A stretch of 64,000 bases of DNA. It comes from Candidatus Margulisiibacteriota bacterium. Its GTDB lineage: Bacteria > Margulisbacteria > Marinamargulisbacteria > JBFWNS01. Location: contig JBFWNS010000001.1 of assembly GCA_050250935.1 (NCBI GenBank), forward strand, positions 130,102-194,101. The letters are read 5' to 3'. The notes below the pieces were generated by a model. It did not search any database. It had not been told where the DNA came from and saw only the letters and a list, made by a program, of their open reading frames with translations. This document shows positions 8,960-61,792 of this stretch, one piece after another; within the stretch, counting starts at the first letter, position 1, and every line of letters begins with the position of its first letter. A program made the position numbers and the translations under genes.

Positions 8960-8981
8960 ACCCTATTCTTCAGTGTGATTT

Positions 8982-32852: not shown

Positions 32853-32854
32853 CC

Positions 32855-35716: not shown

Positions 35717-35876
35717 CTCTGTCCCTCCATTTTTGAAACTGTTTCGTTCATTATACATACTTCTTGCCCCTTTCCCAAAATTTTGAGGTTTTAAACCTGT
35801 TTTTTTAATCGAAAATTAGTTTTCTATTTGTGAAGGGGGATTCAAAAATGGTATTCTGATCCTCACTTTTACCCCT

Positions 35877-42726: not shown

Positions 42727-42805
42727 TGTTTAAGTCTTCGTAAAAGTGGGAATATTCCCGCGCGGAGTAGCACCACTCCACAATTTTCGGTAAGGAGGAT
42801 GTTTT

Positions 42806-43282: not shown

Positions 43283-43433
43283 TCATAACACTGCGCTGAA
43301 TAACTGAGTCTGAAGGCCTTGGGAATTTAAGGTCGACTTTCCCAAGGCCCCTACAAAACACGGCCTGAATACAGTAAACTACCCCTACCGGCGCTACACC
43401 ACAAAATCCCTTGGCCACGGTAGGAGTTGCATC

Positions 43434-44693
43434 ATGTTGTTGTCTTCGATTGCCCATGTTCAGAAAATTGATCCTGAAGTTACCGAATCCCTGCTTAAAG
43501 AACTCCGCCGCCAACGCAATAATATTGAATTGATCGCTTCTGAAAACTTCACCTCTTTGGCTGTTATGGAAGCCCAAGGCACCTGGCTGACCAATAAATA
43601 CGCCGAAGGGTTGCCTGATAAACGCTATTACGGCGGCTGCGACTATGTCGACGAAGTGGAAAAATTGGCCATCGCAAGGGCCAAACAGGTGTTTGGTGCC
43701 GACCATGCCAACGTTCAGCCCCATTCTGGCGCGCAGGCCAACACAGCCGTCATGTTTGCCACCCTCAAACCTGGGGACACGATTATGGGCATGAACTTGG
43801 CCCACGGTGGACATTTAACCCATGGGTCGCCCGTCAGCTTGTCTGGGTCTTATTTTAATGTGATTCCCTACGGTGTGGATCCCACCACCTTCCGCATCGA
43901 CTACAACGAACTCGAAACCATCGCCAAACGCGAAAAACCCAAAATGATTATTGCGGGTGCATCAGCCTATCCCCGCATCATCGATTTTGAACGCATCGGC
44001 AAAATTGCCAAAGAAATCGGCGCGATTTTCTTTGTGGATATGGCCCACATTGCCGGTTTGGTCGCAGCCGGTTTGCATCCCAGCCCTGTTCCCCATGCCG
44101 ACATTGTCACCACCACCACCCACAAAACCCTTCGCGGACCCCGAGGCGGCATGATTTTGTGCACCGAAGCCTATCAAAAACAAATCGACAAAGCGGTTTT
44201 CCCCGGCATTCAAGGCGGGCCACTCATGCACGTGATTGCCGCCAAAGCTGTGGCCTTCAAAGAAGCCTTGTCCCCTGAATTTAAAACCTACCAGTCTCAG
44301 GTTATCAAGAATTCCCAACAACTGGCCCAAACCCTAATCAGTCGCGGATTTACCCTGCTTTCAGGCGGCACCGACAACCACCTCATGCTGGTGGATCTTC
44401 GCCCTCAACAATTAACAGGCAAAGTAGTGGAACACAAACTCGACGAGATTGGCATTACCGTCAACAAAAACGCCATTCCGTTTGACACGGAAAGCCCCTT
44501 CATCACCTCTGGGATTCGCATCGGAACGCCTGCTGCCACTGCACGAGGTATGAAAGAAGATGCCATGACCGCTATCGGAAACCTGATTGCCGATCTGGTG
44601 GCCAATATCGACAACGAGGCCAAAATTGCCGAACTTCGGACCCAGGTCTCGGCACTCACCGACCGTTACCCGCTCTATCCCGAACTCCAATAA
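43434..44693 (+). CDS. glyA: Serine hydroxymethyltransferase
   Basis: 419 aa; PLP-lysine region [14 protein letters not shown] and N-terminal LIASENFTS. Confidence 0.9.
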
Positions 44694-45541
44694 TGCTTAA
44701 AATTGGCTATTTGGGGCCAGCCGGAACGTTTACCGAAAAGGCCATGCAGGTGTACACCCGCACCCTGTCTGTCCCCTTTGAAACCCAGGCTGGCGAATCC
44801 TTTTTTGAACTGTTTGAGGGCCTCAAAAACAACACCCTCACCCATGCCGTGATTGCCATTGAAAACTCCATCGAAGGGGCCGTTGCCCCGAACTTGGACA
44901 TGTTGGTTCAAAACGAAACCTTAAAAATTTGTGCGGATTTAAAGCTGCCCATTTCGCAGGCGTTGATTACCGCAGAGCCCTTGGCCCTGGATCGGATCAC
45001 CGATATCTATTCCCATCCCCAAGGTTTTGCCCAATGCCAAACTTTTTTGCTTTCCCAATTGCCCAAGGTCCGGGTCCATCCCCTGGCTTCAACCGCCGAA
45101 GGGGTGGCCCATCTTAAACCCGGTAGCACCCATGCGGTGATAGGCGCTGCTATTCTAGCCGAGTTGTATCACTTGCATTGCCACACCCCCAACATCCAAG
45201 ATTCCAAAACCAACACCACCCGTTTTGTGGTGATTGCCCACGATTTCCCGCCCCCTTCCGGGCAAGACAAAACCTCGATTGTGTTTTCCACTTTAAAAGA
45301 CAAACCCGGCGGCCTTTATGAGGTGCTTGGGGCTTTTGCCAAACGCACCATTAACTTGACCCGCATTGAATCTCGCCCCACCAAACAAGGGTTGGGCGAT
45401 TATGTATTTTTTATCGATTTGGAAGGCCATGCTGCCGATGCCAATGTGGCCGAAGCCTTGGATGAATTGCAACACAAAACCTCGTTTTACCGACTTTTGG
45501 GATCTTACCCCACACTACCCTTGCCAAAGGAGCCGTCATGA
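44693..45541 (+). CDS. pheA: Prephenate dehydratase
   Basis: [14 protein letters not shown] start, PDT domain and C-terminal ACT-like domain (TRFVVIA...ESRP). Confidence 0.8.
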
Positions 45542-46791
45542 TCGATCCGAAGCGCATCCGCGATGAATTGGACACTGTTCGCCAAGCCCTGCAAAACCGA
45601 CACTTTCCCGCCGAAGCCCTGGACCAAGTGGCTCAACTGGATGCCCAGTGGCTGGAAGCCAGACACAAACTCGAACAGCTCCAAACCGAACGGAACCAAC
45701 AAACCCCCAAGGGCAAACCCACGGACGAACAACGCCAAGCCCTGGGGCAACTCTCTGCAGCGGTTAAAGCCCAACAAGAAACGGTGGACGCCTTGGCCAC
45801 CGACCTTCAAAAAGCCTGTCTAATGCTCCCCAGCATTCCCGATGCCACGGTGCCCATTGGTGCCTCTGAAGATGACAATGTCGAAGTCAAAACCTGGGGA
45901 ACCCCACCCACCTTAGATTTTGAACCCAAAAGCCACGATGTTTTGGCCGAAAAATTGGGGATTTTGGATTTCGAAAGCTCGGCCAAAACCTCGGGAGCTC
46001 GGTTTGTGTGTTATCGGGGATTGGGCGCGAAATTGGAACGTGCCCTGATCAACTTTATGCTGGATGTTCAAACCCAAGACAACGGCTACGAAGAAATGAT
46101 TCCCCCTGTTTTAATCAATTCTCAAAGCATGGTGGGAACCGGTCAGTTGCCCAAATTCGCCGAAGAAAGTTTCAAGATCGAAAACACCGATTTTTGGTTG
46201 GCCCCCACCGCCGAGGTTCCCCTGACGAACCTATACCGGGACCATATTTTTGACGAGGCCGAGCTTCCAAAAGCCATCACCGCCTATACCCCTTGTTTTC
46301 GCAAAGAAGCAGGCTCTTATGGCAAAGACATGAAAGGTATTATCCGTCTTCATCAATTTAACAAGGTCGAGTTGGTCCGGTTTTGCAGCCCGGAACACTC
46401 TGCAGCCGAACACGAAAAGCTGTTGGGCCATGCCGAAACCATTTTGCAAAAACTGGGGCTTGCCTACCGGGTCATTACCCTGTGCACCGGCGACTTGGGC
46501 TTCTCTGCCGGCAAAACCTATGACATCGAAGTTTGGCTTCCCTCTCAAAATAAATACCGAGAAATTTCGTCCTGTTCGAACTTTTTTGATTTTCAAGCCC
46601 GCCGTGCCATGATACGATACAGAGAGTCTGGGACGGGGAAAGTACGCTATTTACATACCCTGAACGGATCTGGATTGGCTGTTGGCCGCACCTTTGCTGC
46701 CCTGTTGGAAAATGGTCAGCAAGCGGATGGCAGTATTCTGATTCCAGAAGTTCTGGTTCCATATCTGGGGGTGAAACAACTTCATGGCTGA
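45538..46791 (+). CDS. serS: Seryl-tRNA synthetase
   Basis: N-terminal coiled-coil arm, class II core motifs ([18 protein letters not shown]...[18 protein letters not shown]). Confidence 0.9.
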
Positions 46792-47065
46792 AAAAAACAC
46801 CAAATTCATTAAATTTTTCAAAGCCCTTGCCAACGAAGAACGGCTTGAAATCCTAAAACTCCTCAAAAAAAATACCGAAATGTTTGCTCAAGATGTTGAA
46901 AAACACTTCTTTTTAGAGCAATCCACGACGTCGCATCACCTGAACATGCTCAAACGGGCCGGGATTACCAAGTCTCGAAAAGAAGGTCGCAAAATTTTTT
47001 ATTCCATCGATTACGATCAATTGAATGCTGCCTTGCAAGAATTTTCTGGGCTCATCAACGGGTAA
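46784..47065 (+). CDS. ArsR/SmtB-family HTH transcriptional regulator
   Basis: 93 aa; [16 protein letters not shown]...[14 protein letters not shown] helix-turn-helix pattern. Confidence 0.7.
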
Positions 47066-47142
47066 AATCCGGGTAATATTCAGAATTATCCATACATGTA
47101 TCCCTTAAAACCTGTCGATAAACCAGCCAAAGGGCAACGATT

Positions 47143-47457
47143 ATGACAGCACATTCCCAAAATCTTCCAACCCAAACGACACCTGATTCTCGCAGAGGCG
47201 GGGTTTTTATGGTGTCTTCAAAGGAAAAACAGTCGAAATTTGAAGCTGTTTTGAAAAGCATTTTACCCCATTTGGGCACCCACGAAGGTCGTATTATTTT
47301 GGCTGAAGTCATGATTGCTTTAAAACTCGAAGGGATCATTGGTAAACAATTGTCCGAACACGACGCCAAAATGGTTGGGGTGATTAACCAATCCATTGTG
47401 GGCACGCCCTATCGAAAACTCGAGGCCTTGCGTCTGGCCCAAAGACTGTTGGAATAA
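47143..47457 (+). CDS. Hypothetical small protein
   Basis: 104-aa ORF, first of three tightly packed small ORFs; no motif recognised. Confidence 0.4.
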   Translation: MTAHSQNLPTQTTPDSRRGGVFMVSSKEKQSKFEAVLKSILPHLGTHEGRIILAEVMIALKLEGIIGKQLSEHDAKMVGVINQSIVGTPYRKLEALRLAQRLLE

Positions 47458-47476
47458 AGGGCTTAGGGGATTTTCT

Positions 47477-47656
47477 ATGGTGGATAGCTTTTTTAGCCAA
47501 CGCCCCTCGGAACTGCTGTTTAACAAGGCCAAGGATGTTTTAATGGACATGAATGTGAGTCCTGAAATCATCAAAGATTTGGCCAGCAGCTTGGATTCGC
47601 CTACTAAACATCCAGACCCGCCCATCGACACGGGTAAGGGTGGGACTGTGGTGTAA
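47477..47656 (+). CDS. Hypothetical small protein (59 aa)
   Basis: Start chosen at MVDSFF (ATG 47477, AGGGGA 8 nt upstream) rather than the upstream ATG of the listed ORF. Confidence 0.3.
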   Translation: MVDSFFSQRPSELLFNKAKDVLMDMNVSPEIIKDLASSLDSPTKHPDPPIDTGKGGTVV

Positions 47657-47967
47657 TGAACATCAATCCTTCTTCCCGATTTGAGCCCGATCCTGGCTTA
47701 AAGGCCCAACAGGCTGCTGCACAACCCGACCCAAATAACCCTTTTTTAGCCCATTTAAAACAGGCTTCAACCAACCCCAACTTGACCCCATTGATTCCCA
47801 ACGAGCAAGCTCAAAAACAGTCTTTGGAGCGGGAAAAACAAAAAATTGGGGAAGAGTTTTATGTGGAAGAATCTGAAGATGGGGAAAGCATTGCCAAAAC
47901 CGTCAGCGAGATCAAAAAAAAGCTCAAAGCCATTTCCGATCTAGAACGACGGCATTTGGGGTTATAA
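47656..47967 (+). CDS. Hypothetical small protein, Pro/Gln-rich N-terminus and acidic C-terminus
   Basis: Start ATG overlaps the previous stop (taATGa); no motif recognised. Confidence 0.4.
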   Translation: MNINPSSRFEPDPGLKAQQAAAQPDPNNPFLAHLKQASTNPNLTPLIPNEQAQKQSLEREKQKIGEEFYVEESEDGESIAKTVSEIKKKLKAISDLERRHLGL

Positions 47968-47968
47968 G

Positions 47969-48223
47969 TTACCGATAGACATCTTTTCGATGTCTTACAC
48001 GCAATACAGTAATTGTGGCTTCCTCAACGGTATAAACCAACCTGTAATCGCCTTCTCGAAGGCGGTAGGTATGCAGAGAACCGCTGAGTTTTTTACTGTC
48101 CGTTGGGAAAGGGTTATCGATTAATTCTAAAAGACGCTTATCAAATCGCCTCAGCATCAAAGCAGGCAACTCTTCAAGCTCTTTTTGGGCCTTTTTGCTA
48201 ATAAAAAGACTAAATTTTTCCAT
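47969..48223 (-). CDS. Type II toxin, RelE/ParE family
   Basis: C-terminal YRLREGDYRLVY...VLRVRHRKDVYR is a classic RelE/ParE signature; start set at MEKFSL (ATG 48223, AAGG upstream), overlapping the antitoxin stop. Confidence 0.75.
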   Translation of the reverse strand: MEKFSLFISKKAQKELEELPALMLRRFDKRLLELIDNPFPTDSKKLSGSLHTYRLREGDYRLVYTVEEATITVLRVRHRKDVYR

Positions 48224-48419
48224 GCGCCTTAAGCTGTTCTCGAAATTTGTCGTAAGAGATTTTCTCATCCTCTCTACGCTCTGCAACAACAGCCAAGTCT
48301 TCTAAATCCTCCATGAGGGTTTCATAGCTTTCAATGGGCAACACCACAAAGGCCCGATTACCATCGGCATCCAATACAAACTGGGGGGCTGTTTTAGACG
48401 ACTCTTTTTTCTTTTTCAT
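48210..48419 (-). CDS. Type II antitoxin, Phd/YefM-like
   Basis: 69 aa; FVVLPIESYETLMEDLEDLAVVAERRED pattern; immediately upstream of and overlapping the toxin. Confidence 0.65.
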   Translation of the reverse strand: MKKKKESSKTAPQFVLDADGNRAFVVLPIESYETLMEDLEDLAVVAERREDEKISYDKFREQLKAHGKI

Positions 48420-48424
48420 GAGCC

Positions 48425-49240
48425 TTATTTTACATGGATTGAATTCAAAAACAACACCCCTTTGGCGTTGAGTGCGTGCCCGGATCCGATGCCCACAACA
48501 TGGCCGCGGATGCGTCGGCCCAAAATCGCAAAATCGCCGATCATGTCCAAGACTTTGTGGCGGGCCAGTTCGTCTGGAAACCGCAACGGGTTTAGGTAGC
48601 CGTCGTCTTTGATGATGACTGCGTTGTCCAAGCTGCCGCCTTGGGCCAGGCCTTTTTCCAGCAAATGGGCCACTTCGTGGTAAAAGCCATAGGTGCGGGC
48701 TGGGGCAATGTCTTGGATAAACGATTCTGGGCTGTCCAACACCGAGGCCACTTGGGTGCCAATAAAGGTGTCGGGATAGGACAAGACATAGGTGAAACGG
48801 GGTTCTGAACTGGGAATAAACAGGATTTTCTTATCCCCATCTTCGATAAAACCAGGGGTTGTAATCACCTGTTCTGGCCAAGGGGTTTCTTGATTTTTAA
48901 GTCCGGCCTTTACAAAGGCCTCCACAAACGCGTTTGCACTGCCATCCACAACGGGTACTTCGGGATGGTCCAATTCGACCCGAAGATTGGCTATACACAA
49001 CCCATAACAGGCCGCCAAAAAATGTTCTGGGGTTTGGACCCTGGCCCCTGCTTTTTCGAGCAAGGTTGCCCGGGCCGTATGAGCCAAAGCATCGGGACGC
49101 ACCGGAACCGCTTGCCCGGCAACCTCGAACACAAGTCCTGTCCCCACTGGGGCTGGATGGACCCTACACGTGTTGGCTTTTCCGCTGTGAATGCCGATCC
49201 CATGGATGGCGAAGGACTCGGCTACGGTGTGCTGTTTCAC
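48425..49240 (-). CDS. lpxC: UDP-3-O-acyl-N-acetylglucosamine deacetylase
   Basis: ARTYGF, HKVLDMIGDF and SGHALN motifs at LpxC-typical positions. Confidence 0.85.
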   Translation of the reverse strand: MKQHTVAESFAIHGIGIHSGKANTCRVHPAPVGTGLVFEVAGQAVPVRPDALAHTARATLLEKAGARVQTPEHFLAACYGLCIANLRVELDHPEVPVVDGSANAFVEAFVKAGLKNQETPWPEQVITTPGFIEDGDKKILFIPSSEPRFTYVLSYPDTFIGTQVASVLDSPESFIQDIAPARTYGFYHEVAHLLEKGLAQGGSLDNAVIIKDDGYLNPLRFPDELARHKVLDMIGDFAILGRRIRGHVVGIGSGHALNAKGVLFLNSIHVK

Positions 49241-50421
49241 TAGGCGTCCTGGGAAAGTTCTGGCGAGGTTGGCTTTAGCAAGAGCACAAAACCCACCGTA
49301 GCCAGCACCAAAACCAATCCAAAGGCAAAATAACTGAGGCGGGTATAGAGCAAGACAAATCCAAAGGCCCCCAGAGGGCCAATAATGCGACTCAGGCTAC
49401 CCAATCCTTCGTAAAGACCCATGAGTGCGCCCCGGCTATCAGCGTGGGCAAATCCAGACAATAACGAGGGCATATAGGCATTGACCAACCCGACGCCCAG
49501 GGCCAGGGCCGCCAAGGAAACCAACAACATCCCCAACCCATGGGCCATGGACAATCCAAAAACGCTTAGGGCCGTAATGCTTAAGCCTACCCCCACCATG
49601 CGCTTCAGGTTGCGGGTTGCGCGTCGGGTGATACCCCCTTGAACCACCAACATCATCAGCCCCACAAACACAAACAGCCAGCTGTTTTGCTGGGTGGTAT
49701 AGCCAAAAACCCGGTGGGTAAAGGCCGAAAACGAGGTCTCGAAACCGGAAAACAAAATCATATACACCATTTGGGTTAGGCAAATAATGCGAACCGGGCG
49801 GCTGGTTAACCGGGTAGGCAAGGCTTTAAGACTTTCCAAAGCCGATTCTGATTTTTTTCGAGACTCCGGCTCTTTTAAAAACAGGACCGTTATGAGGGTC
49901 GCCACCGCCGAAAATCCACCCGCCACCCAGGCCGGCAAGGCATGACCGTTGCTGATTCCAAACAAAATGCCACCCAGGGCTGGCCCTAAAATAAAGCCCG
50001 TTCCAAAGGCAATCCCAATCACAGCCATGCCTTTGGGGCGGTCTTCGGGGCTGGTGATATCCCCCACATAGGCCCTGGCAACCGAAATATTGCCGCCAGT
50101 GAAGCCGTCTAGAAGCCTGGAAATCAAAAACAAGGCATAGGTGTGGGCATTGGCCAAGAGCACATAGGCCAAAACCGATCCCACTTTGCTGATAACCAAC
50201 AAAGGTTTTCGGCCAAATTTATCAGAAAGCGCCCCCAAAACCGGGGCTGCCACAAACTGGGCCAGGGAATACGAGGCCAATAAAAACCCGATCAAGAAGG
50301 GGCTCACCTGAAACTGGCTGGCGATTTGCGGCAAAATGGGGATGAGCAGACCAAACCCAATCAGTTCGGTGGCCACCACCAAAAACAAGATGAACAAACT
50401 TTTTTTATGGGGTGAATTCAT
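49240..50421 (-). CDS. MFS transporter (DHA1/tetracycline-efflux-like)
   Basis: 12 predicted TM helices; MFS motif GALSDKFGRKP between TM2 and TM3. Confidence 0.8.
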   Translation of the reverse strand: MNSPHKKSLFILFLVVATELIGFGLLIPILPQIASQFQVSPFLIGFLLASYSLAQFVAAPVLGALSDKFGRKPLLVISKVGSVLAYVLLANAHTYALFLISRLLDGFTGGNISVARAYVGDITSPEDRPKGMAVIGIAFGTGFILGPALGGILFGISNGHALPAWVAGGFSAVATLITVLFLKEPESRKKSESALESLKALPTRLTSRPVRIICLTQMVYMILFSGFETSFSAFTHRVFGYTTQQNSWLFVFVGLMMLVVQGGITRRATRNLKRMVGVGLSITALSVFGLSMAHGLGMLLVSLAALALGVGLVNAYMPSLLSGFAHADSRGALMGLYEGLGSLSRIIGPLGAFGFVLLYTRLSYFAFGLVLVLATVGFVLLLKPTSPELSQDA

Positions 50422-50923
50422 AGTGATCTTTCAAAAATTGGAATAGTTGCTGGGCCCAGGCATCGGGATCGAAATCCCCTTCCAGACGAAACACATGGTC
50501 CGCATATTTTTCGTACAGCGGCTGTCGTTCGGCAAAAACGGCTTCGAATCCTTTTTCTTTAAGTCCTACAATGCCGCGCTTGGCTGCATCGGTAACCCGG
50601 CGTTGAATGTTCTCGAAACTGTCTTGCAAATAGACAATAATGGATTGTTTTTTAAGGTGGCGCATGGCCTTTTGGGAATAGACCACACTACCCCCTGGGG
50701 CCAAGACCATTCTGGCCAAATGGGTCAGATTCAAGATGGTCTCTTCTTCGATGCGCATCATGGCATCGGTGCCGGATCGGTCGATGATGTCGATTAAATC
50801 TTGGTGGGTCCGCTGACGAATCAGCTGATCGGGGTCGATAAACCCATAGTCCATCAGCTTTGCCAGCCGCTTGCCCAATTCTGTTTTGCCCACGCCGGGC
50901 ATGCCAATGAGTGTGATTACCAT
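50405..50923 (-). CDS. aroK: Shikimate kinase-like P-loop kinase
   Basis: Walker A GMPGVGKT, D-x-D after it, overall size and pattern consistent with shikimate kinase; assignment moderate. Confidence 0.55.
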   Translation of the reverse strand: MVITLIGMPGVGKTELGKRLAKLMDYGFIDPDQLIRQRTHQDLIDIIDRSGTDAMMRIEEETILNLTHLARMVLAPGGSVVYSQKAMRHLKKQSIIVYLQDSFENIQRRVTDAAKRGIVGLKEKGFEAVFAERQPLYEKYADHVFRLEGDFDPDAWAQQLFQFLKDHYEFTP

Positions 50924-50981
50924 ATTGTTTTTCAGATGATATAATAAAGTCTTTTGTAAATCCCTTCTAGGAGTATTCAGA

Positions 50982-51365
50982 ATGATGGAAACCGTTTTAA
51001 CCCAAAAATCCCCTGTTCCCCTTGGCCACTACAGCCAAGCGGTGATCCACAACGGCCTGGTATATGTTGCCGGCCAATTGCCCATTGATCCCCAACACGA
51101 AAACCAACCCCTTCAATCGTTGGAAGACCAAACCCGCCAAGTCCTTCAAAACCTCGACGAGATTTTATTGGCCTCTGGCAGCGACCGAAACCACGTTCTT
51201 AAAGTCACCATTTACCTGACCGACTTGGCCCACTGGGCAACCGTGAACGATATTTACGGTCGGTTTTTTGGCAAACACAAACCCGCCCGATCTGCCGTCC
51301 CCGTTAAAACCCTTCCCAAGGGCTATTTTTTAGAAATCGACGTCATCGCCGCTCAGGTGAAATAA
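50982..51365 (+). CDS. ridA: RidA/YjgF family protein
   Basis: 127 aa; PLGHYSQAV...VYVAGQLP...IYLTDL...ARSAV...LPKG...EIDVIA pattern. Confidence 0.8.
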   Translation: MMETVLTQKSPVPLGHYSQAVIHNGLVYVAGQLPIDPQHENQPLQSLEDQTRQVLQNLDEILLASGSDRNHVLKVTIYLTDLAHWATVNDIYGRFFGKHKPARSAVPVKTLPKGYFLEIDVIAAQVK

Positions 51366-51366
51366 A

Positions 51367-51735
51367 ATGAAACCAGAACGCGTAGCGGTGATTGGCGCCT
51401 CTGACAAACCCGACCGCTATTCCTACATGGCCATCGAGCGCCTCCGCAACCATGGCCATGTGGCGTTGCCCGTACACCCCAAGTTAAAAACCGTTCAAGG
51501 CCTGGCCGTATATCCCAGCCTTGCCCAAGTCCCCCACCCCATCGATACCATCACCCTGTACGTTAACGCCGAGAAATCCGCCGCGATGGCCGCAGACCTC
51601 ATCGCCGCAAACCCCCGCCGCGTAATCTTTAACCCCGGTACCGAAAGCCCTGCTCTAGAAGCCACTCTCCAAAACGCCGGCATCCAAACGATGGAAGCCT
51701 GCACGCTGGTCCTGCTTTCTACGAAGCAATTTTAA
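51367..51735 (+). CDS. CoA-binding domain protein (YccU-like)
   Basis: 122 aa; VAVIGASDKPDRYSY...VHPK...G...YPSL pattern of CoA_binding_2 proteins. Confidence 0.65.
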   Translation: MKPERVAVIGASDKPDRYSYMAIERLRNHGHVALPVHPKLKTVQGLAVYPSLAQVPHPIDTITLYVNAEKSAAMAADLIAANPRRVIFNPGTESPALEATLQNAGIQTMEACTLVLLSTKQF

Positions 51736-52321
51736 TCACAAACGCACAGCGTTTGTGATGGATTGTATACACAAACGACAAGCGTTTGTGGGTCGCAGCG
51801 TTGAAGTAAATTCAACGCCGCTCCCGCTGCGCGGCCTCCGTTCCAGCCTTTTCCAGAGAAACGGATACTCCGTTACAGGGATAATGGGGCTAAAAAAATG
51901 GATTATAAGCTCGATTGCCAGCGAAGCGAAGCAGTTTCAGATTGTATTCACAAACGCACAGCGTTTGTGGGTCGGAACATTGAAGCAAGTTCAATCTTCC
52001 TCCCGCTGCGCGGCTTCTGTTCCAGCTTTTTCCAGCGAAACTGTTCCTCCGTTCCAGAGATAAGGGGGCTAAAAAAATGGATTATAAACCGATTGCCAGC
52101 GAAGCGAAGCAATCCCAAACCGCGCTAAGCGTTAAGTGTTGGTCTTACCCCCTCCAATCGGGAGGGGGCAGGGGGTGGGGAACCTTATTAGCGAAATGTC
52201 CGAAACCCCATCCAGCCGAAGGCTGCGTGGGTGAGTTTTGAGCGTAAAAGCACAGGTGGGGGGTCCTAGGGGGGCACCTCGCGCAGCGTGGTTCCCCCCT
52301 AGGCGTTAAGCGACGCTTACC
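51736..52321. repeat. Convergent-intergenic repeat cluster: two ~179-bp tandem units with CACAAACG-N5-CGTTTGTG palindromes, followed by GC-rich hairpins
   Basis: Units at ~51761-51939 and ~51940-52118; each has a palindrome, a TTGAA-N5-TTCAA hairpin whose loop varies between copies, and GGGGCTAAAAAAATGGATTATAA; then hairpins ccccctcc/ggagggggg (52147-52170) and cctagggggg...cccccctagg (52264-52303). Confidence 0.8.
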
Positions 52322-53380
52322 CTACCACTCCAAAGTCCCAGTCTGATACTCCTTCACCCGTCCTTCAAAGAAGTTCACTTCAATCATATTCCCTTGGGTC
52401 AATTCATCGATCCAAGGATACGGATTCGTCGCATTCCAAACCTTAGGCAAGCCAATGGCCGCCAAGCGTTGGTCCCCAATAAATTGGAGATACTCTTTCA
52501 TGTTATCGCCAGTAATCCCCAAAATGCCATCACCAATGCAAGACAATCCCCATTCATATTCCATTTGAACGGCATCTTTAACGTTTTGGATAATGAGATC
52601 TTGGAGCTCTTGGGTCCACAACTCGGGCTGCTCTTCTCGAATGCCGTTAATGATGTTCACAAACAAAGCCACGTGCAAATCTTCGTCGCGGTTGATGAAC
52701 TGGATCATCTCTTTGCTGCCGGGCATTTTGTTATTTCGGCCAAAATTGTAGAAAATTAAGAAGGCGCTAAAGAAAAACACCCCTTCCAAAATCAGGTTGG
52801 TGGTGCAGGCTTCTAGGAACAACTTGTCGTTATCCAAAGTGCCCGTTTTGAAGCCAGGAAAGGCAATTTTAGAGACTGATCTTAAAACCGTTTTGTTTTT
52901 GTAGAACAACCCTTTGTCTTTACGGTACAGCCCGTACACTTCTTCAGCATCAAAGCCCAAGGCTTCGATCATACAAGAATAGGAATCAACGTGAAGCGCC
53001 TCTTCGTAGATTTGCCTGGCCAAAGCCAAACAAACCTCTGGGCTGGTGATTTGGGGTTTGATCAATTCAGACAAGGTCTTGGTGAGCAATCCATCCAAAT
53101 TGGAGGCAAAGGCCAAGGCGCGCATGAAAGCATTCTTTTCGGTTTCGGTGAGCTTGTTGTTGTACCATTGCTCGTAGTCGGTTTGGAAAGGAATTTCTTC
53201 GGCAACCCAGTTGTTCCGTTGCATTTTTTTGAAAATGTCCCGGGCCCAAGGGTGTTTGAGGGGGCTGGCTTGCATCAATCCATCGTCAAACCCGTTGATG
53301 ATGCGGCGTTTGTTGATGATGTCGGCGTTGCTCATGGGGGAGTCTGTAAATTCGCCTTGAAAAAGTTCACTAATAGACAT
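52322..53380 (-). CDS. nrdB: Ribonucleoside-diphosphate reductase beta subunit (class I)
   Basis: 352 aa; diiron ligand pattern (E...EALH...E...EGVFFF...EDLH). Confidence 0.9.
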   Translation of the reverse strand: MSISELFQGEFTDSPMSNADIINKRRIINGFDDGLMQASPLKHPWARDIFKKMQRNNWVAEEIPFQTDYEQWYNNKLTETEKNAFMRALAFASNLDGLLTKTLSELIKPQITSPEVCLALARQIYEEALHVDSYSCMIEALGFDAEEVYGLYRKDKGLFYKNKTVLRSVSKIAFPGFKTGTLDNDKLFLEACTTNLILEGVFFFSAFLIFYNFGRNNKMPGSKEMIQFINRDEDLHVALFVNIINGIREEQPELWTQELQDLIIQNVKDAVQMEYEWGLSCIGDGILGITGDNMKEYLQFIGDQRLAAIGLPKVWNATNPYPWIDELTQGNMIEVNFFEGRVKEYQTGTLEW

Positions 53381-53398
53381 GGTTTACCTCGCTTTTTT

Positions 53399-56134
53399 TT
53401 ATTGACAGGCTTCGCAATCGGGATCGTTGATCAAACAGGCTTTGGGCATTTCGGCAGGAACCGGTTGTTCTACCGCAGGCTTTTCGGCGACCACGGCATC
53501 TGTCACCGACATTTTGGTGATCTGAGACGCCCCCAAGGTTCGGAGGTAGTAGGTGGTTTTAAGACCTTGTTCCCAAGCGGCCATGTAAATGTCGCTGAGG
53601 GCTTTCCCGCTGGTGGTGTTGCTGAATACGTTGGTAGAGGCCGCTTGATCGATCCATTTGGACCGTCTTGCGGCTGCCCCAATAATCCATTTCCCATCGA
53701 TTTCGAAGGTTTCTTTGTACTTGGCTTTGATGGCCACGGGAATCTCTTCAATGTCTTGAATAGACCCATTGTAGAGCTTGATTTTGGCCACCATGTCGGG
53801 ATTCCACAATCCCAGTTTTTCCAATTCGTCGATCAGATAGCGGTTGATCACGATGAAGTTTCCAGACAAATTTTCTTTCATGTAGATGTTTTTATAAACC
53901 GGTTCTGTGCAGGGATAAACACCGGAAATATTGGCAATGGTGGCGGTGGGGGCGATGGCCATGGTGTTGGAGTTTCTCATGCCGTGTTGGGCAACCTGAG
54001 CTTTCAAAGCAGCCCAATCCAAGCGTTGAGCTTTATTCACTTGGATGGCTTGTCCCCGTTGCTCTTCCAAAACCATTAAGGTGTCGAGCGGGAAAAGCCC
54101 ACGGGACCATTTGCTGCCGTCATAGGAAGGATAAGTGCCCCGTTCTTGGGCCAACAAGGCACTGGCCTTAATGGCATAATAAGAAATCATTTCCATGGAT
54201 TGATCGGCAAACTCAAGGTTGGCTTCAGAATCAAAGGCAATGCCCACTTGGAACAAGGCATCTTGATAGCCCATCAAACCCAACCCGACCGCACGGTGAC
54301 GGAAGTTGGCTTTTTCGGCTTCTGGAATGGGGTAAAAATTGTTATCGATGACGTTGTCGAGCATGCGAATGCCCACTTCCACAGTCTTGGCGATTTTGGC
54401 TTCATCCAGGGCCCCATCTTTGATCATTCTGGCCAAGTTTAGGCTAGCCAAGTTACAAACCGCTGTTTCGTCTTTCGAGGTGTTCAAGGTGATTTCGGTA
54501 CACAGGTTGGACGAGTGAATCACCCCACAATGGTCTTGGGGATTACGAACGTTGGCCGCGTCTTTGAAGGTCATCCAGGGATGGCCTGTTTCGTAGAGCA
54601 TGGTCAACATTTTTCGCCACAGATCCAAGGCTTTCACTTTTTTGGCTCGGGGCAAATTTGCAGCTTCGTATTCCACATATTTGGCTTCGAAGGCCTTGCC
54701 GTACAGATCGTGCAATTCGGGAACATCGGCTGGGCAGAAGAAGGTCCAGTCTTGATCTTGTTGAACACGTTTCATGAACAAATCTGGAATCCAGCTGGCC
54801 GTATTAACATCGTGGGCGCGGCGGCGTTCGTCGCCGGTATTCTTTTTCAGTTCTAAAAATTGTTCGTAATCCAAGTGCCACATTTCCATGTAGGCGCACA
54901 TGGCCCCTTTGCGTTTACCCCCTTGGTTCACGGCCAGGGCGACATCGTTGAAAATTTTGATAAACGGAATGACCCCTTGGGACATGCCGTTGGTGCCTTT
55001 GATTTTAGACCCTGTTGCCCGAACATAGGTAAAGTCGGATCCAATCCCTCCGGCCCATTTGCTGAGGTTGGCGTTGTCGGCATAGAGTTTAAAGATGCTG
55101 TTGAGCGAATCGCCGGCCAAATTGAGGTAGCAAGAGCTCATTTGGCTGTGGGTGGTACCGCTGTTGAATAAGGTTGGGGTTGAAGAAACCAAGTCCATTT
55201 GAGACAACACGTTGTAGAACTCGATGGCGCGGGCTTCTTTATCGGCTTCTTTAAGCGCCAAGCCCATGGCCACACGCATCCAGAACCATTGAGGCAATTC
55301 GTAGATATTTTTTTCCAGGGATCGATCGCGAAGGAAATAACGGTCGATTAAAATCTGAACCCCCAAATAATAAAACAACTTGTCTCGTTCTGGGTTCAAG
55401 GCTGCCGCCAATTTTTCCAAATCGAAGCCAGCTAGCTCGGGATTCAGCATTTCGTAAGAAATCCCTTTGGCCACATAATCCGCAAATTTTTCTTTATACA
55501 ACTCGGCCAAGCGCGGACTATTCATGGGCTCGCCCAAAATTTTGCCGTACAACTCGTTGCTGATGGCGATGCGGGAGGCCAGGTGGGCATAATCGTAGTG
55601 CAATTCGATGCGTTCTCTGGCGGCGGTTAGTACCAAGAGGTCGATTTCGTGCTTAGGGATGTTGTCGTAGACCTGCTTGGTGACCGCTTCGACCATTTCG
55701 GTGATGGACACGCGCATGAGGTCTGGGGCCAATTGGCGCAGCTGCTCTTCGATGGATTTGGAATCGAAGATAACGGTTTCGGTTTCGCTGACTTTGACCT
55801 GAAGTTGCTTCTCGCGGATTTTGTCCAACACCTTTTGTTGGCGAACCTGTTTGTGCATCTCCCGATACACAATGTAGTTGCGGGCAATTTTGTGGTAGCC
55901 CGCTTTCATGAGCATTTCTTCAACCACGTCTTGAACCGATTCCACGATGGTGGTGTCGTTGTTCCCAGACCTGGCGATCATCGCATAGACCACTTCTTCG
56001 GTTAGTTTGGCCACAGCCGCTGTATCCACTTTGTTTTCGGACAAAAAGGCCTTCTCGATGGCACTGAAAATTCGAGCTTTATCGAAAGGAACTTTTTGAC
56101 CGTTGCGTTTGATGATGTAGTGGATTAGGGCCAT
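53399..56134 (-). CDS. nrdA: Ribonucleoside-diphosphate reductase alpha subunit (class I, with ATP-cone)
   Basis: 911 aa; N-terminal ATP-cone (IIKRNGQKVPFDKARI), active-site region, C-terminal Cys pair (CEAC). Confidence 0.9.
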   Translation of the reverse strand: MALIHYIIKRNGQKVPFDKARIFSAIEKAFLSENKVDTAAVAKLTEEVVYAMIARSGNNDTTIVESVQDVVEEMLMKAGYHKIARNYIVYREMHKQVRQQKVLDKIREKQLQVKVSETETVIFDSKSIEEQLRQLAPDLMRVSITEMVEAVTKQVYDNIPKHEIDLLVLTAARERIELHYDYAHLASRIAISNELYGKILGEPMNSPRLAELYKEKFADYVAKGISYEMLNPELAGFDLEKLAAALNPERDKLFYYLGVQILIDRYFLRDRSLEKNIYELPQWFWMRVAMGLALKEADKEARAIEFYNVLSQMDLVSSTPTLFNSGTTHSQMSSCYLNLAGDSLNSIFKLYADNANLSKWAGGIGSDFTYVRATGSKIKGTNGMSQGVIPFIKIFNDVALAVNQGGKRKGAMCAYMEMWHLDYEQFLELKKNTGDERRRAHDVNTASWIPDLFMKRVQQDQDWTFFCPADVPELHDLYGKAFEAKYVEYEAANLPRAKKVKALDLWRKMLTMLYETGHPWMTFKDAANVRNPQDHCGVIHSSNLCTEITLNTSKDETAVCNLASLNLARMIKDGALDEAKIAKTVEVGIRMLDNVIDNNFYPIPEAEKANFRHRAVGLGLMGYQDALFQVGIAFDSEANLEFADQSMEMISYYAIKASALLAQERGTYPSYDGSKWSRGLFPLDTLMVLEEQRGQAIQVNKAQRLDWAALKAQVAQHGMRNSNTMAIAPTATIANISGVYPCTEPVYKNIYMKENLSGNFIVINRYLIDELEKLGLWNPDMVAKIKLYNGSIQDIEEIPVAIKAKYKETFEIDGKWIIGAAARRSKWIDQAASTNVFSNTTSGKALSDIYMAAWEQGLKTTYYLRTLGASQITKMSVTDAVVAEKPAVEQPVPAEMPKACLINDPDCEACQ

Positions 56135-56340
56135 AACTAACTCTCCTTAAAAAATAAAAAATGGATACGAGAAAATGGATACAAGAAAACCCAAAATGGG
56201 CTCTGCCATCTGTACTAAAAAACAATAAAATCAACTTGTAAGTTTGCGAGTTTTCCCTAAGTAGTAGGGGTGACTAACTCAACCTGAAAATTAGGTTTTT
56301 TTGAAGAAGATTTGGGTACCCTGAAAATGGGGTGAAATGC

Positions 56341-56372
56341 ATTATACACCCACGCTTCTTCGGTCCGTCAAC
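56341..56372 (-). promoter_or_regulatory. Candidate sigma-70-type promoter for nrdA (extended -10 TGTATAAT with TTGACG -35)
   Basis: On the nrdA sense strand: TTGACG, about 19 nt spacer, TGTATAAT; about 200 nt upstream of the nrdA start. Spacer is longer than optimal, so speculative. Confidence 0.3.
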
Positions 56373-56508
56373 AGAAGATTTCATGGATTGTTTATGGTCT
56401 ATTTTTGAGACTTGATCTCAATAAAAATCAGGATTCTTGCTTGATCAAAACCCTCGACTTGGGTTAGGGTTAAACCCGAACGTTATCCCCCGCAAAAAAG
56501 GACATTTT

Positions 56509-57003
56509 ATGGCTGACCCCTCGTTTGATATCGCCTCTAAAATTGACTGGCAAGAAATCGTCAACGCCGTTAACCAAACCGAGCGAGACATCGCCAATCG
56601 CTACGACCTTAAAGACAGCGGCGCCACCATCGAGCAAAAGCAAGCGGACTCTAAAATTTTTATTGAAGCCCCAGACGACTATAAAGTAAACGCCATCTAT
56701 GAACTCTTTGTTCAAAAGCTCATCAAGCGTGGGATTTCAGCCAAAGCCGTTAAAGCCGGCGAAATCAAATCCGCCTTGGGTGGCCGAGCTAAAATGGAAA
56801 TAACGGTTCAACAAGGCATTTCCAAAGAAAAAGCCAAAGAAATCACAAAAGACGTCAAGGACAGCGGCTTGAAAGTTCAAACCCAAATTCAGGACGATCA
56901 GATTCGGGTATCTGGCAAAAAGATCGACGATCTACAGGCCGTTATGAAGGTCTTAAAAGCCAAAGACTACGACATTCATATTGATTTTATTAATTATAGA
57001 TAG
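56509..57003 (+). CDS. yajQ: YajQ-family nucleotide-binding protein
   Basis: Start set at MADPSFDIASKIDWQEIVNAV (ATG 56509, AAGGA upstream), the typical YajQ N-terminus. Confidence 0.8.
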   Translation: MADPSFDIASKIDWQEIVNAVNQTERDIANRYDLKDSGATIEQKQADSKIFIEAPDDYKVNAIYELFVQKLIKRGISAKAVKAGEIKSALGGRAKMEITVQQGISKEKAKEITKDVKDSGLKVQTQIQDDQIRVSGKKIDDLQAVMKVLKAKDYDIHIDFINYR

Positions 57004-57310
57004 GGGCATCTATAGATGGGGGCTTGCGTCGCCCCCTCAACCGAAGCAAGTTCGGTTGAGCCTCCCCCTCACGCTGGCGCTGGGCCTTCGGCCTGGCTTG
57101 TCTTTTTTGTACAGGGTCCTTTAGGCCCCTGCGGGGAGGAAAGTCGAACTTGCTCCAAGTGCGGGCGAGGAGGTTGAATTTAGTTCAACCTCCTCCCCAC
57201 AAAACCTGTGGTTTTGTGATTATAATAAGCCCGTTTTTTAGTACAGGGCCTTTTAGGCCCCTGCAGGCGAACAGCTTTGGATTTACTCCAAAGCTGCGAC
57301 ACACAAACGC
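57004..57310. repeat. Convergent-intergenic repeat cluster sharing a ~135-bp element with 32591-32725 and palindrome modules with 51736-52118
   Basis: 57019-57154 near-identical to 32591-32725; further GTACAGGG...TTTAGGCCCCTGC module and a CACAAACG...GTTTGTG palindrome at ~57299-57325. Confidence 0.8.
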
Positions 57311-58677
57311 TATGTGTTTGTGTTTACAATCGGCGTAAACTCGCCTTCCCATTTGGCAACGACAACGGTTGCCAAGCAGTTCCCTAAAACGTTAACCGCT
57401 GTACGACCCATGTCCATCAAGGCATCGATACCTAAAATCAAGAAAATGGGTTCAACTGGCAGATTGAATTGGGCGGCAGTACCCAAAAGAATCACCAAGG
57501 AAGCTCGGGCAACGCCGGCCACGCCTTTGCTGGTCAACATCAGGGTAAACCCAATCAAAAGCTGATGCATAATCGACAAATGAATCCCGGCCGCCTGTGC
57601 CACAAAAACAGTGGCCAAAGACAAATACAAGGTTGTTCCATCCAAATTGAAGCTATACCCCGTTGGAATTACAAAAGACACGATTTTTCGGGGAACCCCA
57701 ATCGATTCCATCCCTTCCATGGCCTTGGGCAATGCAGACTCTGAACTGGCGGTACCAAAGGCAATCACAACAGGCTCTGCAACCGCTTTTAAAAAGGCTT
57801 TGATCGGAACACGAACGATTAAGGCAATCGGTAAAAGCACACACAACACAAAGACGATAAGCGCCACATAAAGGGTTAACAACAGCTGGAACAAATTCAC
57901 CAAAACGCCAAGACCCATGTTCCCAACCGTATAGGCAATGGCACCCCCTACCCCAATTGGGGCAAAGAGCATCACCACATCGGTGAACTTGAACATAACC
58001 TCGGACAATCCTTCAAAAAACGACACCATGGGGGCTTTGTACTTTTCTTTAACCATGGCCAACCCAATGGCAAAAAAGATGCTGAACACCACAATTTGAA
58101 GAATTTCCCCATTGGCAACAGACTTGGCAATGTTTTCTGGGAAAATGTGCAACACAATGTCATGAAAAGATTGTTTTTGAACTTGAACCACTTCAGCATG
58201 CAGGTTGGCTGGCATGTGAATCCCAACCCCGGCTTTGCTGACGTTAATGGCAAATAACCCAACCACCAAAGCAATGGTGGTGACCAACTCGAAGTAAATG
58301 ATGGATTTTAAACCCATACGTCCAACTTGTTTAAGGTTGGAATGTCCGGCAATCCCAACCACCAAAGTTGCAAACAACAGTGGGGCAATGATTGTTTTGA
58401 TCAAATGCAAGAAAATTTCGCTTAAAATTTTCAGATTAACCGCAACAGCTGGCAAATCGTGGCCAACCAAAATACCAATCACCATGCTGATAAAAATAAA
58501 AACCGTTAAAGACCGTTTTTGAAACCCATAAGCCAAAAGCCCAAGACTGGCCACCAAATGCCCCCCGTACAATAAAGGCTGGGACACCGGTGCAAGATCA
58601 TACAGATGTAAGACCTGTAAAATAGCCGCTACTGTCACCGACAGAATAGCCGCCCAAACGGAAACGGATTTACTCAT
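57310..58677 (-). CDS. Dicarboxylate/amino acid:cation symporter (DAACS family)
   Basis: 455 aa polytopic; re-entrant loop motifs typical of GltP/DctA-type symporters. Confidence 0.8.
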   Translation of the reverse strand: MSKSVSVWAAILSVTVAAILQVLHLYDLAPVSQPLLYGGHLVASLGLLAYGFQKRSLTVFIFISMVIGILVGHDLPAVAVNLKILSEIFLHLIKTIIAPLLFATLVVGIAGHSNLKQVGRMGLKSIIYFELVTTIALVVGLFAINVSKAGVGIHMPANLHAEVVQVQKQSFHDIVLHIFPENIAKSVANGEILQIVVFSIFFAIGLAMVKEKYKAPMVSFFEGLSEVMFKFTDVVMLFAPIGVGGAIAYTVGNMGLGVLVNLFQLLLTLYVALIVFVLCVLLPIALIVRVPIKAFLKAVAEPVVIAFGTASSESALPKAMEGMESIGVPRKIVSFVIPTGYSFNLDGTTLYLSLATVFVAQAAGIHLSIMHQLLIGFTLMLTSKGVAGVARASLVILLGTAAQFNLPVEPIFLILGIDALMDMGRTAVNVLGNCLATVVVAKWEGEFTPIVNTNT

Positions 58678-58771
58678 GCAATACTCCTTTTGAAATCAAA
58701 AATAAGGCTAAAAAAATTGGGATGAAGGCAGTATGATTGCAGAATCGGCAAGATTTAGTCAAGGAAAGTGA

Positions 58772-59260
58772 ATGTCTAACCTAACCATCAGAAGTGTGCT
58801 TGGTCTCGTTTTTTGGGTTCTTTTTTGCCCGATGGCGATGGCCCATGTGTTTTCTGGGCGGGTGGTTCATGTTAGCGATGGGGACACGATTGTGGTTTTG
58901 CAGGACAATCGCCACAGCACAAAAATTCGGCTGGCCGCCATTGATTGTCCAGAAAAATCCCAACCCTTTGGACGCCAAGCCCAACGGTTTACCCAAGCGT
59001 TTTGCGACGGCCAACGCGTGACAGTTACCACCACCAAAAAAGACCGATACGGCCGAACCATTGGCACGGTTCAAGTGGGATCAAAACGGTTGGATATCGC
59101 CCTATTGGAAGCCGGCCTGGCCTGGCATTACCGCTATTTTGACCACGATCCGGCCTTGGATGCTCTTGAACAACAGGCCAGGGCCGAGCGCAAGGGGCTG
59201 TGGTCCGAGGCCAATCCCACCCCACCCTGGGACTATCGCAAAGCGCGTCGGCGGCGGTAA
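58772..59260 (+). CDS. Secreted thermonuclease (SNase-like)
   Basis: Signal peptide; VSDGDTIVV...IRLAAIDCPEK...DRYGRTIG...GLAWHYRYF pattern. Confidence 0.75.
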   Translation: MSNLTIRSVLGLVFWVLFCPMAMAHVFSGRVVHVSDGDTIVVLQDNRHSTKIRLAAIDCPEKSQPFGRQAQRFTQAFCDGQRVTVTTTKKDRYGRTIGTVQVGSKRLDIALLEAGLAWHYRYFDHDPALDALEQQARAERKGLWSEANPTPPWDYRKARRRR

Positions 59261-60243
59261 GTGGTTTTTTCCAGCCACAAATAGTCGGCTTTGAGAACCA
59301 CTCGCCAGAGCCCTGGCAGGTCCAAGCCAATGGATTGATCGGTTTGAATCAGCTGCATCAACGTGTCGATATGGCCGGCGCTGACCACTTGTTCTGCCCC
59401 CAGTTCCGCCCGCTGTTGAGCTTGGGATAAAAAGCGCCACAACACATGGCTTAAAATGGGTTTTGGAAGGGGTTTTAGTAGGGCAAAGGGCACCGAAAAG
59501 CCCGTCTCGCAGGTCATGAATCTGGCCAAAATTGGAGCGGCTTGTTCTTCCCAGTACTGGGCCTTTTCTTGGGCTGTTGCCGCGGCCTTCAACAGTGTCT
59601 CTTCGAAAGTCGGGTTGATGCTGGACAGTAGGGGCAGAACTTGATGTCGGATTTTGTTGCGCAAAAAAGTTGGCTCGAGATTGGTTGTATCGGTTACAAA
59701 GCCCATTTTTTGTTTTGCCAAAAACCCCAGAATCTCGGCTTTTCTGAGGCCTAAAAGGGGTCGGTGCAGAGTCAGGCCATCGCCCAAATCGGAAGCCGGG
59801 GTGATGCCGGCCCAGCCGCTGCCCGTCCCCCGAATCCATTGCAGCAAGAGGGTTTCGATGTGGTCATCGCGGTGATGGCCAGTCAAAACATGGGCAATGC
59901 CCTGGGATTTTGCCAGGGTTTTTAGGGCTTTTCTTCGTAAATGATGTCCTGCCTCTTCCACAGACATTCCGGTTTCGGCTGCGGTTTGTTGGATAGGCAA
60001 AGACTGTTGGACCAAAACAACATCCAGCGCTTGGGCACAGGCTGTTACGATCGCTTTTTCTGCTGCCAAAACCTCGGGGGCTCGCAGACCATGGTCGAAA
60101 TACACGGCCCTCTTTGTTCCAGTAAAAAAAGTGGCAACTTGGTGAAGTAAAAATGTACTGTCCGGCCCGCCTGAAAATGCGACCAAAACGGCGTCGGTTG
60201 ACGACAGGCTTTCAAACCGAACCTTGGGGTGGAGGGGACTCAC
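59233..60243 (-). CDS. tilS: tRNA(Ile)-lysidine synthetase
   Basis: PP-loop SGGPDS near the N-terminus; size and pattern fit TilS; overlaps argS. Confidence 0.8.
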   Translation of the reverse strand: MSPLHPKVRFESLSSTDAVLVAFSGGPDSTFLLHQVATFFTGTKRAVYFDHGLRAPEVLAAEKAIVTACAQALDVVLVQQSLPIQQTAAETGMSVEEAGHHLRRKALKTLAKSQGIAHVLTGHHRDDHIETLLLQWIRGTGSGWAGITPASDLGDGLTLHRPLLGLRKAEILGFLAKQKMGFVTDTTNLEPTFLRNKIRHQVLPLLSSINPTFEETLLKAAATAQEKAQYWEEQAAPILARFMTCETGFSVPFALLKPLPKPILSHVLWRFLSQAQQRAELGAEQVVSAGHIDTLMQLIQTDQSIGLDLPGLWRVVLKADYLWLEKTTYRRRRALR

Positions 60244-61790: not shown

Positions 61791-61792
61791 GG

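Follow-up and report, generated by a model that had tools for sequence, protein, structure and literature searches.

Modular hairpin repeats in convergent intergenic spacers of a Candidatus Margulisiibacteriota genome

Repetitive extragenic palindromes (REPs) carry a conserved GTAG tetranucleotide 5' of the palindrome, and protection of mRNA 3' ends or hindrance of ribosome release has been reported for them. Bacterial interspersed mosaic elements (BIMEs) of Escherichia coli are mosaics of hairpin modules and linkers that vary in copy number and are found past stop codons and where genes converge; they have been reported to affect mRNA stability and termination, and the orientation of their REPs alternates (Y and Z types). 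BOX elements of Streptococcus pneumoniae follow a boxA-boxB(n)-boxC layout, are intergenic and species-specific, and have no transposase of their own. In Pseudomonas fluorescens SBW25, REP doublets that form hairpins (REPINs) occur in ordered tandem arrays of up to five, and the sequence between their palindromes is conserved only in its ability to form a hairpin (PMC3337134). Here we describe a spacer of 586 bp (positions 51736-52321) in a Candidatus Margulisiibacteriota genome, flanked by two housekeeping genes that converge on it. It lies in a 64-kb stretch, hereafter the window, which is part of a contig of at least 576 kb. The spacer is probably a mosaic of a genome-specific, modular family of hairpin repeats that resembles REPs, BIMEs and BOX elements and has been locally amplified. 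This is an ordinary kind of feature and would not alter the current understanding of bacterial intergenic repeats.

Most of the spacer is occupied by a tandem array. Tandem Repeats Finder (TRF) delimited it at 51761-52111 with a period of 179 bp, 2.0 copies and 86% matches (score 528), and a separate repeat search, which reports identity per pair, aligned 51761-51908 with 51940-52087 at 84% identity. Both the tandem units of ~179 bp and the convergent arrangement of the flanking genes had been proposed in a first-pass annotation made from the sequence alone, and both are borne out; the flanks are a CoA_binding_2 gene on the + strand and the ribonucleotide reductase small chain gene on the - strand. 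Each unit comprises a 74-nt structured core and ~105 nt of unstructured spacer, X. The core starts with an 8-nt lead, ATT(G/A/T)TA(A/T)(A/T) (ATTRTAWW), and continues with palindrome A (CACAAACG-N5-CGTTTGTG; 21 nt, with an 8-bp stem and a 5-nt loop), a 4-nt linker (GGTC, AATC or TGTC among copies), hairpin B (27 nt, with an 11-bp stem and a 5-nt loop that is mostly GYAAR) and a small GC hairpin, C (TCCCGCTGCGCGGC). Palindrome A is exact at 51737-51757, 51770-51790 and 51949-51969. The annotation had placed a fourth copy near 57299, and this one is found at 57302-57322 with one deviation (CACAAACG...TGTTTGTG). The pattern formed by lead and palindrome, TTRTANNCAMAAACNNNNNNCGTTTKTG, has six matches in the window compared with none in 100 shuffles, and palindrome A recurs 6-7 times where about 0.24 occurrences are expected.

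Predicted folding follows the same partition. Cores out-fold shuffled sequence on both strands (z = -2.9 to about -6.7), whereas X segments do not (z about 0). Folded as single-stranded DNA, the stretch 51729-51835, which spans a partial unit (A0) and the core of unit 1, gives z = -6.3 for the + and -6.75 for the - strand; the core of unit 2 reaches -4.3 and -5.6, and RNA folds of the whole spacer give z of about -6 for both strands. The non-repeated tail of the spacer contributes two further hairpins, CCCCCTCC/GGAGGGGG at 52148-52168 and CCTAGGGGGG.../...CCCCCCTAGG at 52265-52303, the second of which encloses a C-like motif, CACGCTGCGCGAGG, on the - strand.

The left end of the array overlaps a gene. 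Where the repeat starts, it shares its bases with the codons for LLSTKQF, the C-terminus of the CoA-binding protein, and with the TAA stop codon (51733-51735), and A0 forms an 11-bp stem (51735-51745/51749-51759; 100% complementary inverted repeat) whose first base is the last base of that stop codon. A0 is identical to 51948-51969 over 22 nt. The period extends to the left of the TRF bounds, with 51722-51757 aligning to 51927-51969 (34 of 36 identities, one 7-nt gap), and X2 ends in the same 9-mer as the CoA-binding open reading frame (ORF), CGAAGCAAT (51722-51730 in the ORF). The units had been described as following the stop codon of this gene; the array does lie there, but its period takes in the final codons of the ORF. 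The possibility that the repeat supplies the C-terminus was ruled out, because LLSTKQF is conserved in 11 homologs of the protein. Since the alignment reaches the last codons and a native C-terminus, the duplicated segment began inside the 3' end of the CoA-binding gene, which points to amplification in place rather than to two separate insertions.

Related copies occur elsewhere in the window. A covariance model (CM; R1) built on the five complete cores and run over the whole window with filters off recovered seven A-type copies at three loci and nothing else of note, and the A-B-C core recurs five more times beyond units 1 and 2, complete or partial (Table 1). At the first of the other loci, the lead of the tandem 79-bp units begins 8 nt past the stop codon of a 967-aa gene on the - strand, and on the + strand the A'' hairpin, together with the TTTATAATT after it, has a terminator-like score. 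This 79-bp tandem duplication (32696-32848) is 98-99% identical and much younger than the 86% array. The same locus holds an M-type unit that starts 2 nt past the stop codon of a methionine-synthase-like gene on the + strand and consists of a GC hairpin, a B-type hairpin (CTCAACCGAA-GCAAG-TTCGGTTGAG; 32607-32631), a C-like motif and a GGCC hairpin with a T-run. In the second M-type copy, the GGCC hairpin and T-run are terminator-like (+ 57079-57097). The M module, 136 nt with four hairpins, thus stands just past a stop codon at each of two loci 24 kb apart, and is the clearest sign of recent copying between loci. At the third locus, the stop codon of a dicarboxylate symporter gene (TAG, 57310-57312) sits in the loop of palindrome A of the unit at 57257-57330. 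Hairpins related to B had been annotated near 32611 and 57166 and were indeed found at 32607-32631 and 57164-57192. Beyond that annotation, the copies form one modular, dispersed A-B-C family that is oriented with the adjoining genes, and the array starts in the last codons of an ORF. Two large proteins encoded in the window have no Pfam match, one of 967 aa (32855-35758, - strand), which abuts the 32.7-kb mosaic, and one of 677 aa (39058-41091, - strand).

Table 1. Coordinates of the repeat modules and of the genes flanking the spacer (window positions)
Feature	Position	Strand	Support
CoA-binding protein gene, left flank	51367-51735	+	Pfam CoA_binding_2, E=7e-31; protein identical to NCBI MGE4169260.1 (Candidatus Margulisiibacteriota metagenome-assembled genome)
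Partial unit A0: lead ATTTTAAT (contains stop codon) and palindrome A	51729-51759	+	CM 27.4 bits, E=3e-5
Unit 1 core: lead ATTGTATA, A1 51770-51790, GGTC, B1 51795-51821 (loop GTAAA), C1 51822-51835	51762-51835	+	CM 94.8 bits; inverted repeats
Unit 1 spacer X1, unstructured	51836-51940	+	Fold z=0.06
Unit 2 core: lead ATTGTATT, A2 51949-51969, GGTC, B2 51974-52000 (loop GCAAG), C2 52001-52014	51941-52014	+	CM 90.8 bits; inverted repeats
Unit 2 spacer X2	52015-52113	+	Local alignments; fold z=0.37
Non-repeated tail, GC-rich hairpins beside nrdB stop codon	52114-52321		Inverted repeats
Ribonucleotide reductase small subunit gene (nrdB), right flank, convergent	52322-53380	-	Pfam Ribonuc_red_sm, E=1e-68
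M-type unit	32590-32725	+	92-94% identical to 57019-57154; CM matches to B part
Two tandem 79-bp A''-B''-C units (32775-32847, 32696-32768)	32696-32847	-	TRF period 79, 98%; CM 88.3 and 89.9 bits
Second M-type copy, after yajQ-like (DUF520) + strand gene	57019-57154	+	Repeat identity to 32590-32725
Diverged A-B-C unit with hairpin GAGGAGGTTGAA TTTAG TTCAACCTCCTC at 57164-57192	57152-57226	-	CM 46.3 bits
A-B-C unit	57257-57330	-	CM 84.6 bits; blastn 51761-51837 versus 57331-57255, 82%

The copies vary in a manner that preserves structure. When the stated structure was scored on the alignment of the five complete cores, 94.7% of stem cells paired, compared with 30-50% when the 3' partners were shifted by 1-3 columns; both members change in 10 of 23 pairs, and the observed covariation score was reached in none of 500 shuffles. 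Because the copies are few and related, these pair-change counts are not independent events. The changes concentrate in helix B, where 8 of 11 pairs show double-sided changes (one position, for instance, is G-C, A-U or U-A depending on the copy). Helix A, in contrast, is conserved in sequence, with six of eight pairs invariant and one switching from C-G to A-U. The first-pass annotation had argued that structure rather than sequence is under selection, and this holds for helix B but not for palindrome A, nor for the remaining ~105 nt of the unit, whose predicted folding does not exceed that of shuffled sequence. As annotated, the tandem units have TTGAA/TTCAA in common and differ in the loop (GTAAA in the first, GCAAG in the second), although the stems are in fact 11 bp long (51795-51821 and 51974-52000). 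Overall, B differs at 10 of 27 positions compared with 16 of 145 elsewhere in the unit (Fisher p = 0.0018), yet it stays paired, with compensating changes in the outer stem, and C and the stems of A are identical. B1 is nearer to the B hairpin at 57277-57309 than to B2, and the 3' half of B2 resembles 57134-57158. Since B changes faster than its flanks while pairing is kept, slow compensatory drift after the duplication fits poorly; the over-divergence of B is better matched by replacement or conversion of modules, that is, by exchange of hairpin modules among family members or by arm-to-arm templated repair.

The constancy of palindrome A also bears on the suggestion that it is bound by a cognate regulator. 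An 8-N5-8 palindrome with six of eight pairs invariant, recurring far above expectation, is what operator sites recognized as double-stranded DNA by a dimeric protein might look like. However, variants change both half-sites together (CAAAAACG/CGTTTTTG; CACAAAACC/GGTTTTGTG), keeping complementarity rather than a fixed recognition sequence; every copy lies at gene 3' ends between convergent genes, with none in promoter regions; and the palindrome is always coupled to hairpins B and C. We therefore consider operator sites, and with them a palindrome-binding regulator, very improbable.

All copies lie in three convergent intergenic spacers, at 32588-32854 (267 nt), 51736-52321 (586 nt) and 57004-57309 (306 nt), and the CM scan found none in tandem or divergent spacers of the 64-kb window. 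The other convergent junctions that were read directly either overlap (five) or leave a 1-nt gap (one); two further tight junctions are known only from the Logan gene table after conversion to window coordinates. Each of the five arrays shares the strand of the gene that it abuts. At every one of the six stop codons a hairpin starts less than 20 nt away; in two cases (A0 and the symporter) it overlaps the stop codon, and in the remaining four it begins 2-18 nt past it. Across the span of the mosaics the GC skew is negative or near zero, while arrays face both ways, a weak indication that array orientation tracks genes rather than replication.

This placement favours the main alternative, in which the modules are functional RNA elements of 3' untranslated regions (UTRs), serving as exonuclease barriers, terminators without a U-tract or modulators of ribosome release, and multiplied by local duplication without transposition. 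Such a function would account for the sense orientation of all five arrays and for hairpins positioned from inside the stop codon to 18 nt past it, and is consistent with pairing that persists through double-sided changes, with sense-strand B loops that read GYAAR in six of seven copies, and with the terminator-like GC hairpin and T-run that close the M-type unit on the sense strand. A narrower form of it would make the A-B-C core, instead of selfish DNA, a functional mRNA 3'-end module of this lineage, fixed in orientation to the upstream gene and beginning at its stop codon, in which the lead, A and C are constant and the middle helix diverges fast but remains paired. An RNA-binding protein or RNase could then read this helix as a determinant of recognition or stability specific to the locus; we hold this form to be doubtful.

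Several results speak against the 3' UTR explanation, which we regard as unlikely in its general form. The convergent gene pairs without a mosaic that were checked overlap or nearly touch and so manage without such modules. The terminator scan found no sense-strand U-tract after the A, B or C hairpins of the 179-bp units, and counts of terminator-like sites in the window equal the shuffle expectation; among the modules, only the GGCC hairpin (57079-57097) and, on the + strand and hence opposite to their element, the A'' hairpins (32740-32760 and 32819-32839) pass. Elsewhere, a canonical hairpin (8947-8964, - strand) and a long T-run (8928-8946) follow an Mfd-like gene, so the genome does have classical sites resembling intrinsic terminators, unlike the hairpins of the repeat units. 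Like intrinsic terminators, the modules place hairpins just past stop codons, and some have T-rich tails, but the 179-bp units have no sense U-tract and three to seven hairpins stand in a row rather than one. G-U and A-C mismatches show no strand asymmetry, both strands fold equally well, and the near-identical 136-nt modules at two unrelated loci point to recent copying and not to a function conserved since long ago.

The X segments differ from each other at 12 of 98 positions, and no part of the unit is better conserved than a stretch of 48 nt in X (GGGGCTAAAAAAATGGATTATAA...GATTGCCAGCGAAGCGAAGCA), which has two differences. Within it lies a perfect TATAAT on the - strand (51903-51908 and 52082-52087), which raises the possibility of tandem small RNA (sRNA) genes on that strand, each with a promoter TTCGCT-17-TATAAT in X and an RNA of ~140 nt ending at B' and A' followed by UAUACAAU. 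An A/U-rich tail does follow A on the - strand, and the A'' hairpins are terminator-like on the strand opposite to the element. Yet the -35 box matches at only three of six positions, a consensus promoter scan passed nothing in the units, the tail lacks a run of U, Rfam gives no match, X is unstructured, and the sRNA explanation is accordingly improbable. X is also wholly absent from family members at the other two loci, and is therefore not part of the conserved module. Upstream of nrdA, a direct repeat at 56148-56189 (AAAATGGATAC(G/A)AG; 2.3 copies, 14-nt period) lies 14 nt before the start codon, and by eye it has in common with the conserved part of X (51890-51900 and 52069-52079) the 11-mer AAAAAATGGAT, which could be a shared protein-binding motif or chance.

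Neither coding potential nor a known RNA was detected in the spacer. ORFs internal to the repeats have no Pfam match, the six-frame translation of the spacer matched nothing among 5.8 billion proteins at E<=10, and a 1-nt indel between units shifts the frame after MDYK, in agreement with the earlier description of these ORFs as read-throughs of the repeat. In gathering mode, Rfam returned only a tRNA from the window, and in E-value mode the best match in the spacer scored 21 bits against a threshold of 98. A tRNA-like identity was rejected, as the one tRNA found by ARAGORN lies outside the spacer. Identities as integron attC sites, clustered regularly interspaced short palindromic repeats (CRISPR) or retrons were likewise rejected, as core motifs, unique spacers and reverse transcriptase or integrase genes are all lacking. 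For attC in particular, CACAAAC/GTTTGTG does not fit the RYYYAAC/GTTRRRY cores, the flanking genes are housekeeping genes (nrdB, yajQ-like, methionine-synthase-like) and the window has no integrase.

Searches outside the window returned only chance resemblance. A scan for the lead and palindrome A gave 14 matches in GTDB, 11 in JGI metagenomes (collections that do not include the source genome) and none in viral contigs, and the matches were singletons in unrelated taxa. A distant blastn search of plasmids gave no match. The nearest homolog of the CoA-binding protein is 66% identical; at its locus the neighbour is another gene and the convergent gene overlaps, so that comparison with this locus as an empty site is uninformative. 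Given that the next homolog is this distant and that pattern scans of GTDB and JGI yielded chance singletons only, the family appears to be species-specific.

An independent short-read assembly (Logan k-mer contigs of SRR27751816) is 100% identical to the window where it covers it, and its contigs end at 32819, 51788, 52273 (inside the last tail hairpin) and 57047, with a fifth end placed by arithmetic at about 32620. A contig end was thus seen at each mosaic boundary tested. Since the window contains no second occurrence of any 25-mer from the spacer, the contig ends at 51788 and 52273 suggest that there are additional copies elsewhere or that strains vary. Because the contigs leave 51789-52272 outside their coverage, the array might be thought a chance similarity or an assembly artefact. 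This is scarcely credible in light of the TRF score, the pattern matches against none in shuffles and the 100% identity of the flanks in the second assembly; moreover, units that are 14% diverged are not the product of collapsed or duplicated reads.

Comparison with described systems places the family closest to REPs, BIMEs and BOX elements in organization. BIMEs, like this family, are mosaics of hairpin modules, here with conserved A-B linkers, but orientation does not alternate: all modules of one array face one way, and on either side of a spacer they follow the gene on that side. BOX elements have in common with the family an A-B-C build, an intergenic location, a stable predicted structure and no encoded transposase. 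The analogy is one of organization only, since the middle module of BOX varies in copy number, whereas here it varies in stem sequence and the whole unit is repeated, and no sequence relationship is expected between the two, which come from different phyla. The REP/REPIN systems of Escherichia coli and Pseudomonas, with their REP-associated tyrosine transposases (RAYTs), each encoded by a single-copy gene flanked by the repeats, likewise consist of short imperfect extragenic palindromes that favour gene 3' ends and form tandem arrays (PMC3337134, PMC3116915). Palindrome A (21 nt) and hairpin B (27 nt), in three intergenic spacers, are of REP size (about 20-40 nt), and SBW25 REP cores such as GGGGGCTTGCCCCC are likewise centred on the loop motif GCAAG/CTTGC, but the family has no sequence similarity to REPs. 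REPs number tens to hundreds of dispersed copies per genome; the 64 kb of the window hold seven A-type copies at three loci. Membership in REP/RAYT proper is not established, as neither inverted doublets nor GTAG are present and the search for a RAYT covers the window.

The interpretation that we favour is a genome-specific family of modular hairpin repeats, which would spread as DNA. A-B-C modules would have accumulated at convergent spacers, where insertions are least harmful; one core and ~105 nt of spacer would then have been amplified in place to two copies, likely by slippage or unequal exchange; and helix B would have diverged between copies, probably through conversion from other family members or hairpin-templated repair that changes both arms. 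Spread may have proceeded through single-stranded hairpins recognized by an enzyme encoded elsewhere. When transcribed, hairpins at or just past a stop codon could shield the mRNA 3' end or hinder the release of ribosomes. The sequence itself shows the repeat, the family with its placement and orientation, variation that preserves structure, and a lack of coding potential and of known homologs; dispersal beyond the window, the mode of spreading and any effect on neighbouring mRNAs are the parts of this account that we infer.

Several observations weigh against it. The sense orientation of all five arrays is a prediction of RNA-level function and not an obvious outcome of selfish DNA spread. 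No transposase (RAYT/IS200-like, Y1_Tnp), integrase or other mobility gene was found by Pfam among the scanned genes of the window, which are housekeeping only (long ORFs called in 1370-41091 and 49240-63484, and a precomputed Pfam table for 41367-51788); for Y1_Tnp and other transposases this search covers 64 kb. The pattern singletons in GTDB and JGI have no similarity beyond the pattern and no B or C part, so no further copies were retrieved. The units are direct and collinear and their A, B and C parts fold individually, whereas a REPIN is an inverted doublet that forms one long hairpin, and the 5' flank is ATTRTAWW, with GTAG absent. Mismatches (three G-T versus two A-C) favour neither strand, seven related copies are a thin basis for covariation, and the interior of the array is outside independent contig coverage, even though its flanks match at 100%.

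If the interpretation as a mosaic of dispersed hairpin modules is correct, this would be the first described hairpin-repeat family of a genome of Candidatus Margulisiibacteriota, the sister group of Cyanobacteria, and a very compact genome with overlapping convergent genes would still tolerate REP/BIME-like mosaics at a few convergent junctions. The repeats would also explain why short-read assemblies break at these points and could serve as a strain-typing marker. The orientation rule and the fast-diverging but paired helix B together offer a small test case for distinguishing RNA-level function from the mechanics of DNA hairpins.

Other features of the window lie apart from the repeat family. 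The methionine-synthase-like gene (31268-32587, + strand) encodes a 439-aa protein with only the B12-binding and activation domains of methionine synthase; it lies downstream of a TonB-dependent receptor gene (Plug domain; 29428-31299, + strand) that has a 358-nt upstream spacer, and Rfam detected no cobalamin riboswitch in this region. At the left edge, 1-2721 (- strand) is the start of a 2965-aa gene without a Pfam domain that runs past the window, adjoined by three domain-less ORFs (2735-3682, 3679-4287 and 2256-2600); the Logan extension beyond the window shows one giant gene leftward, and the protein at the right edge is without a record. A ParE toxin and RelB-like antitoxin pair (47969-48419, - strand; Logan gene table) adjoins three small domain-less ORFs and a gene with an ArsR-type helix-turn-helix (46784-47065). 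A further gene (37720-39063, + strand) encodes a fusion of a PIN domain and a PhoH-like ATPase (PIN_4 plus PhoH).

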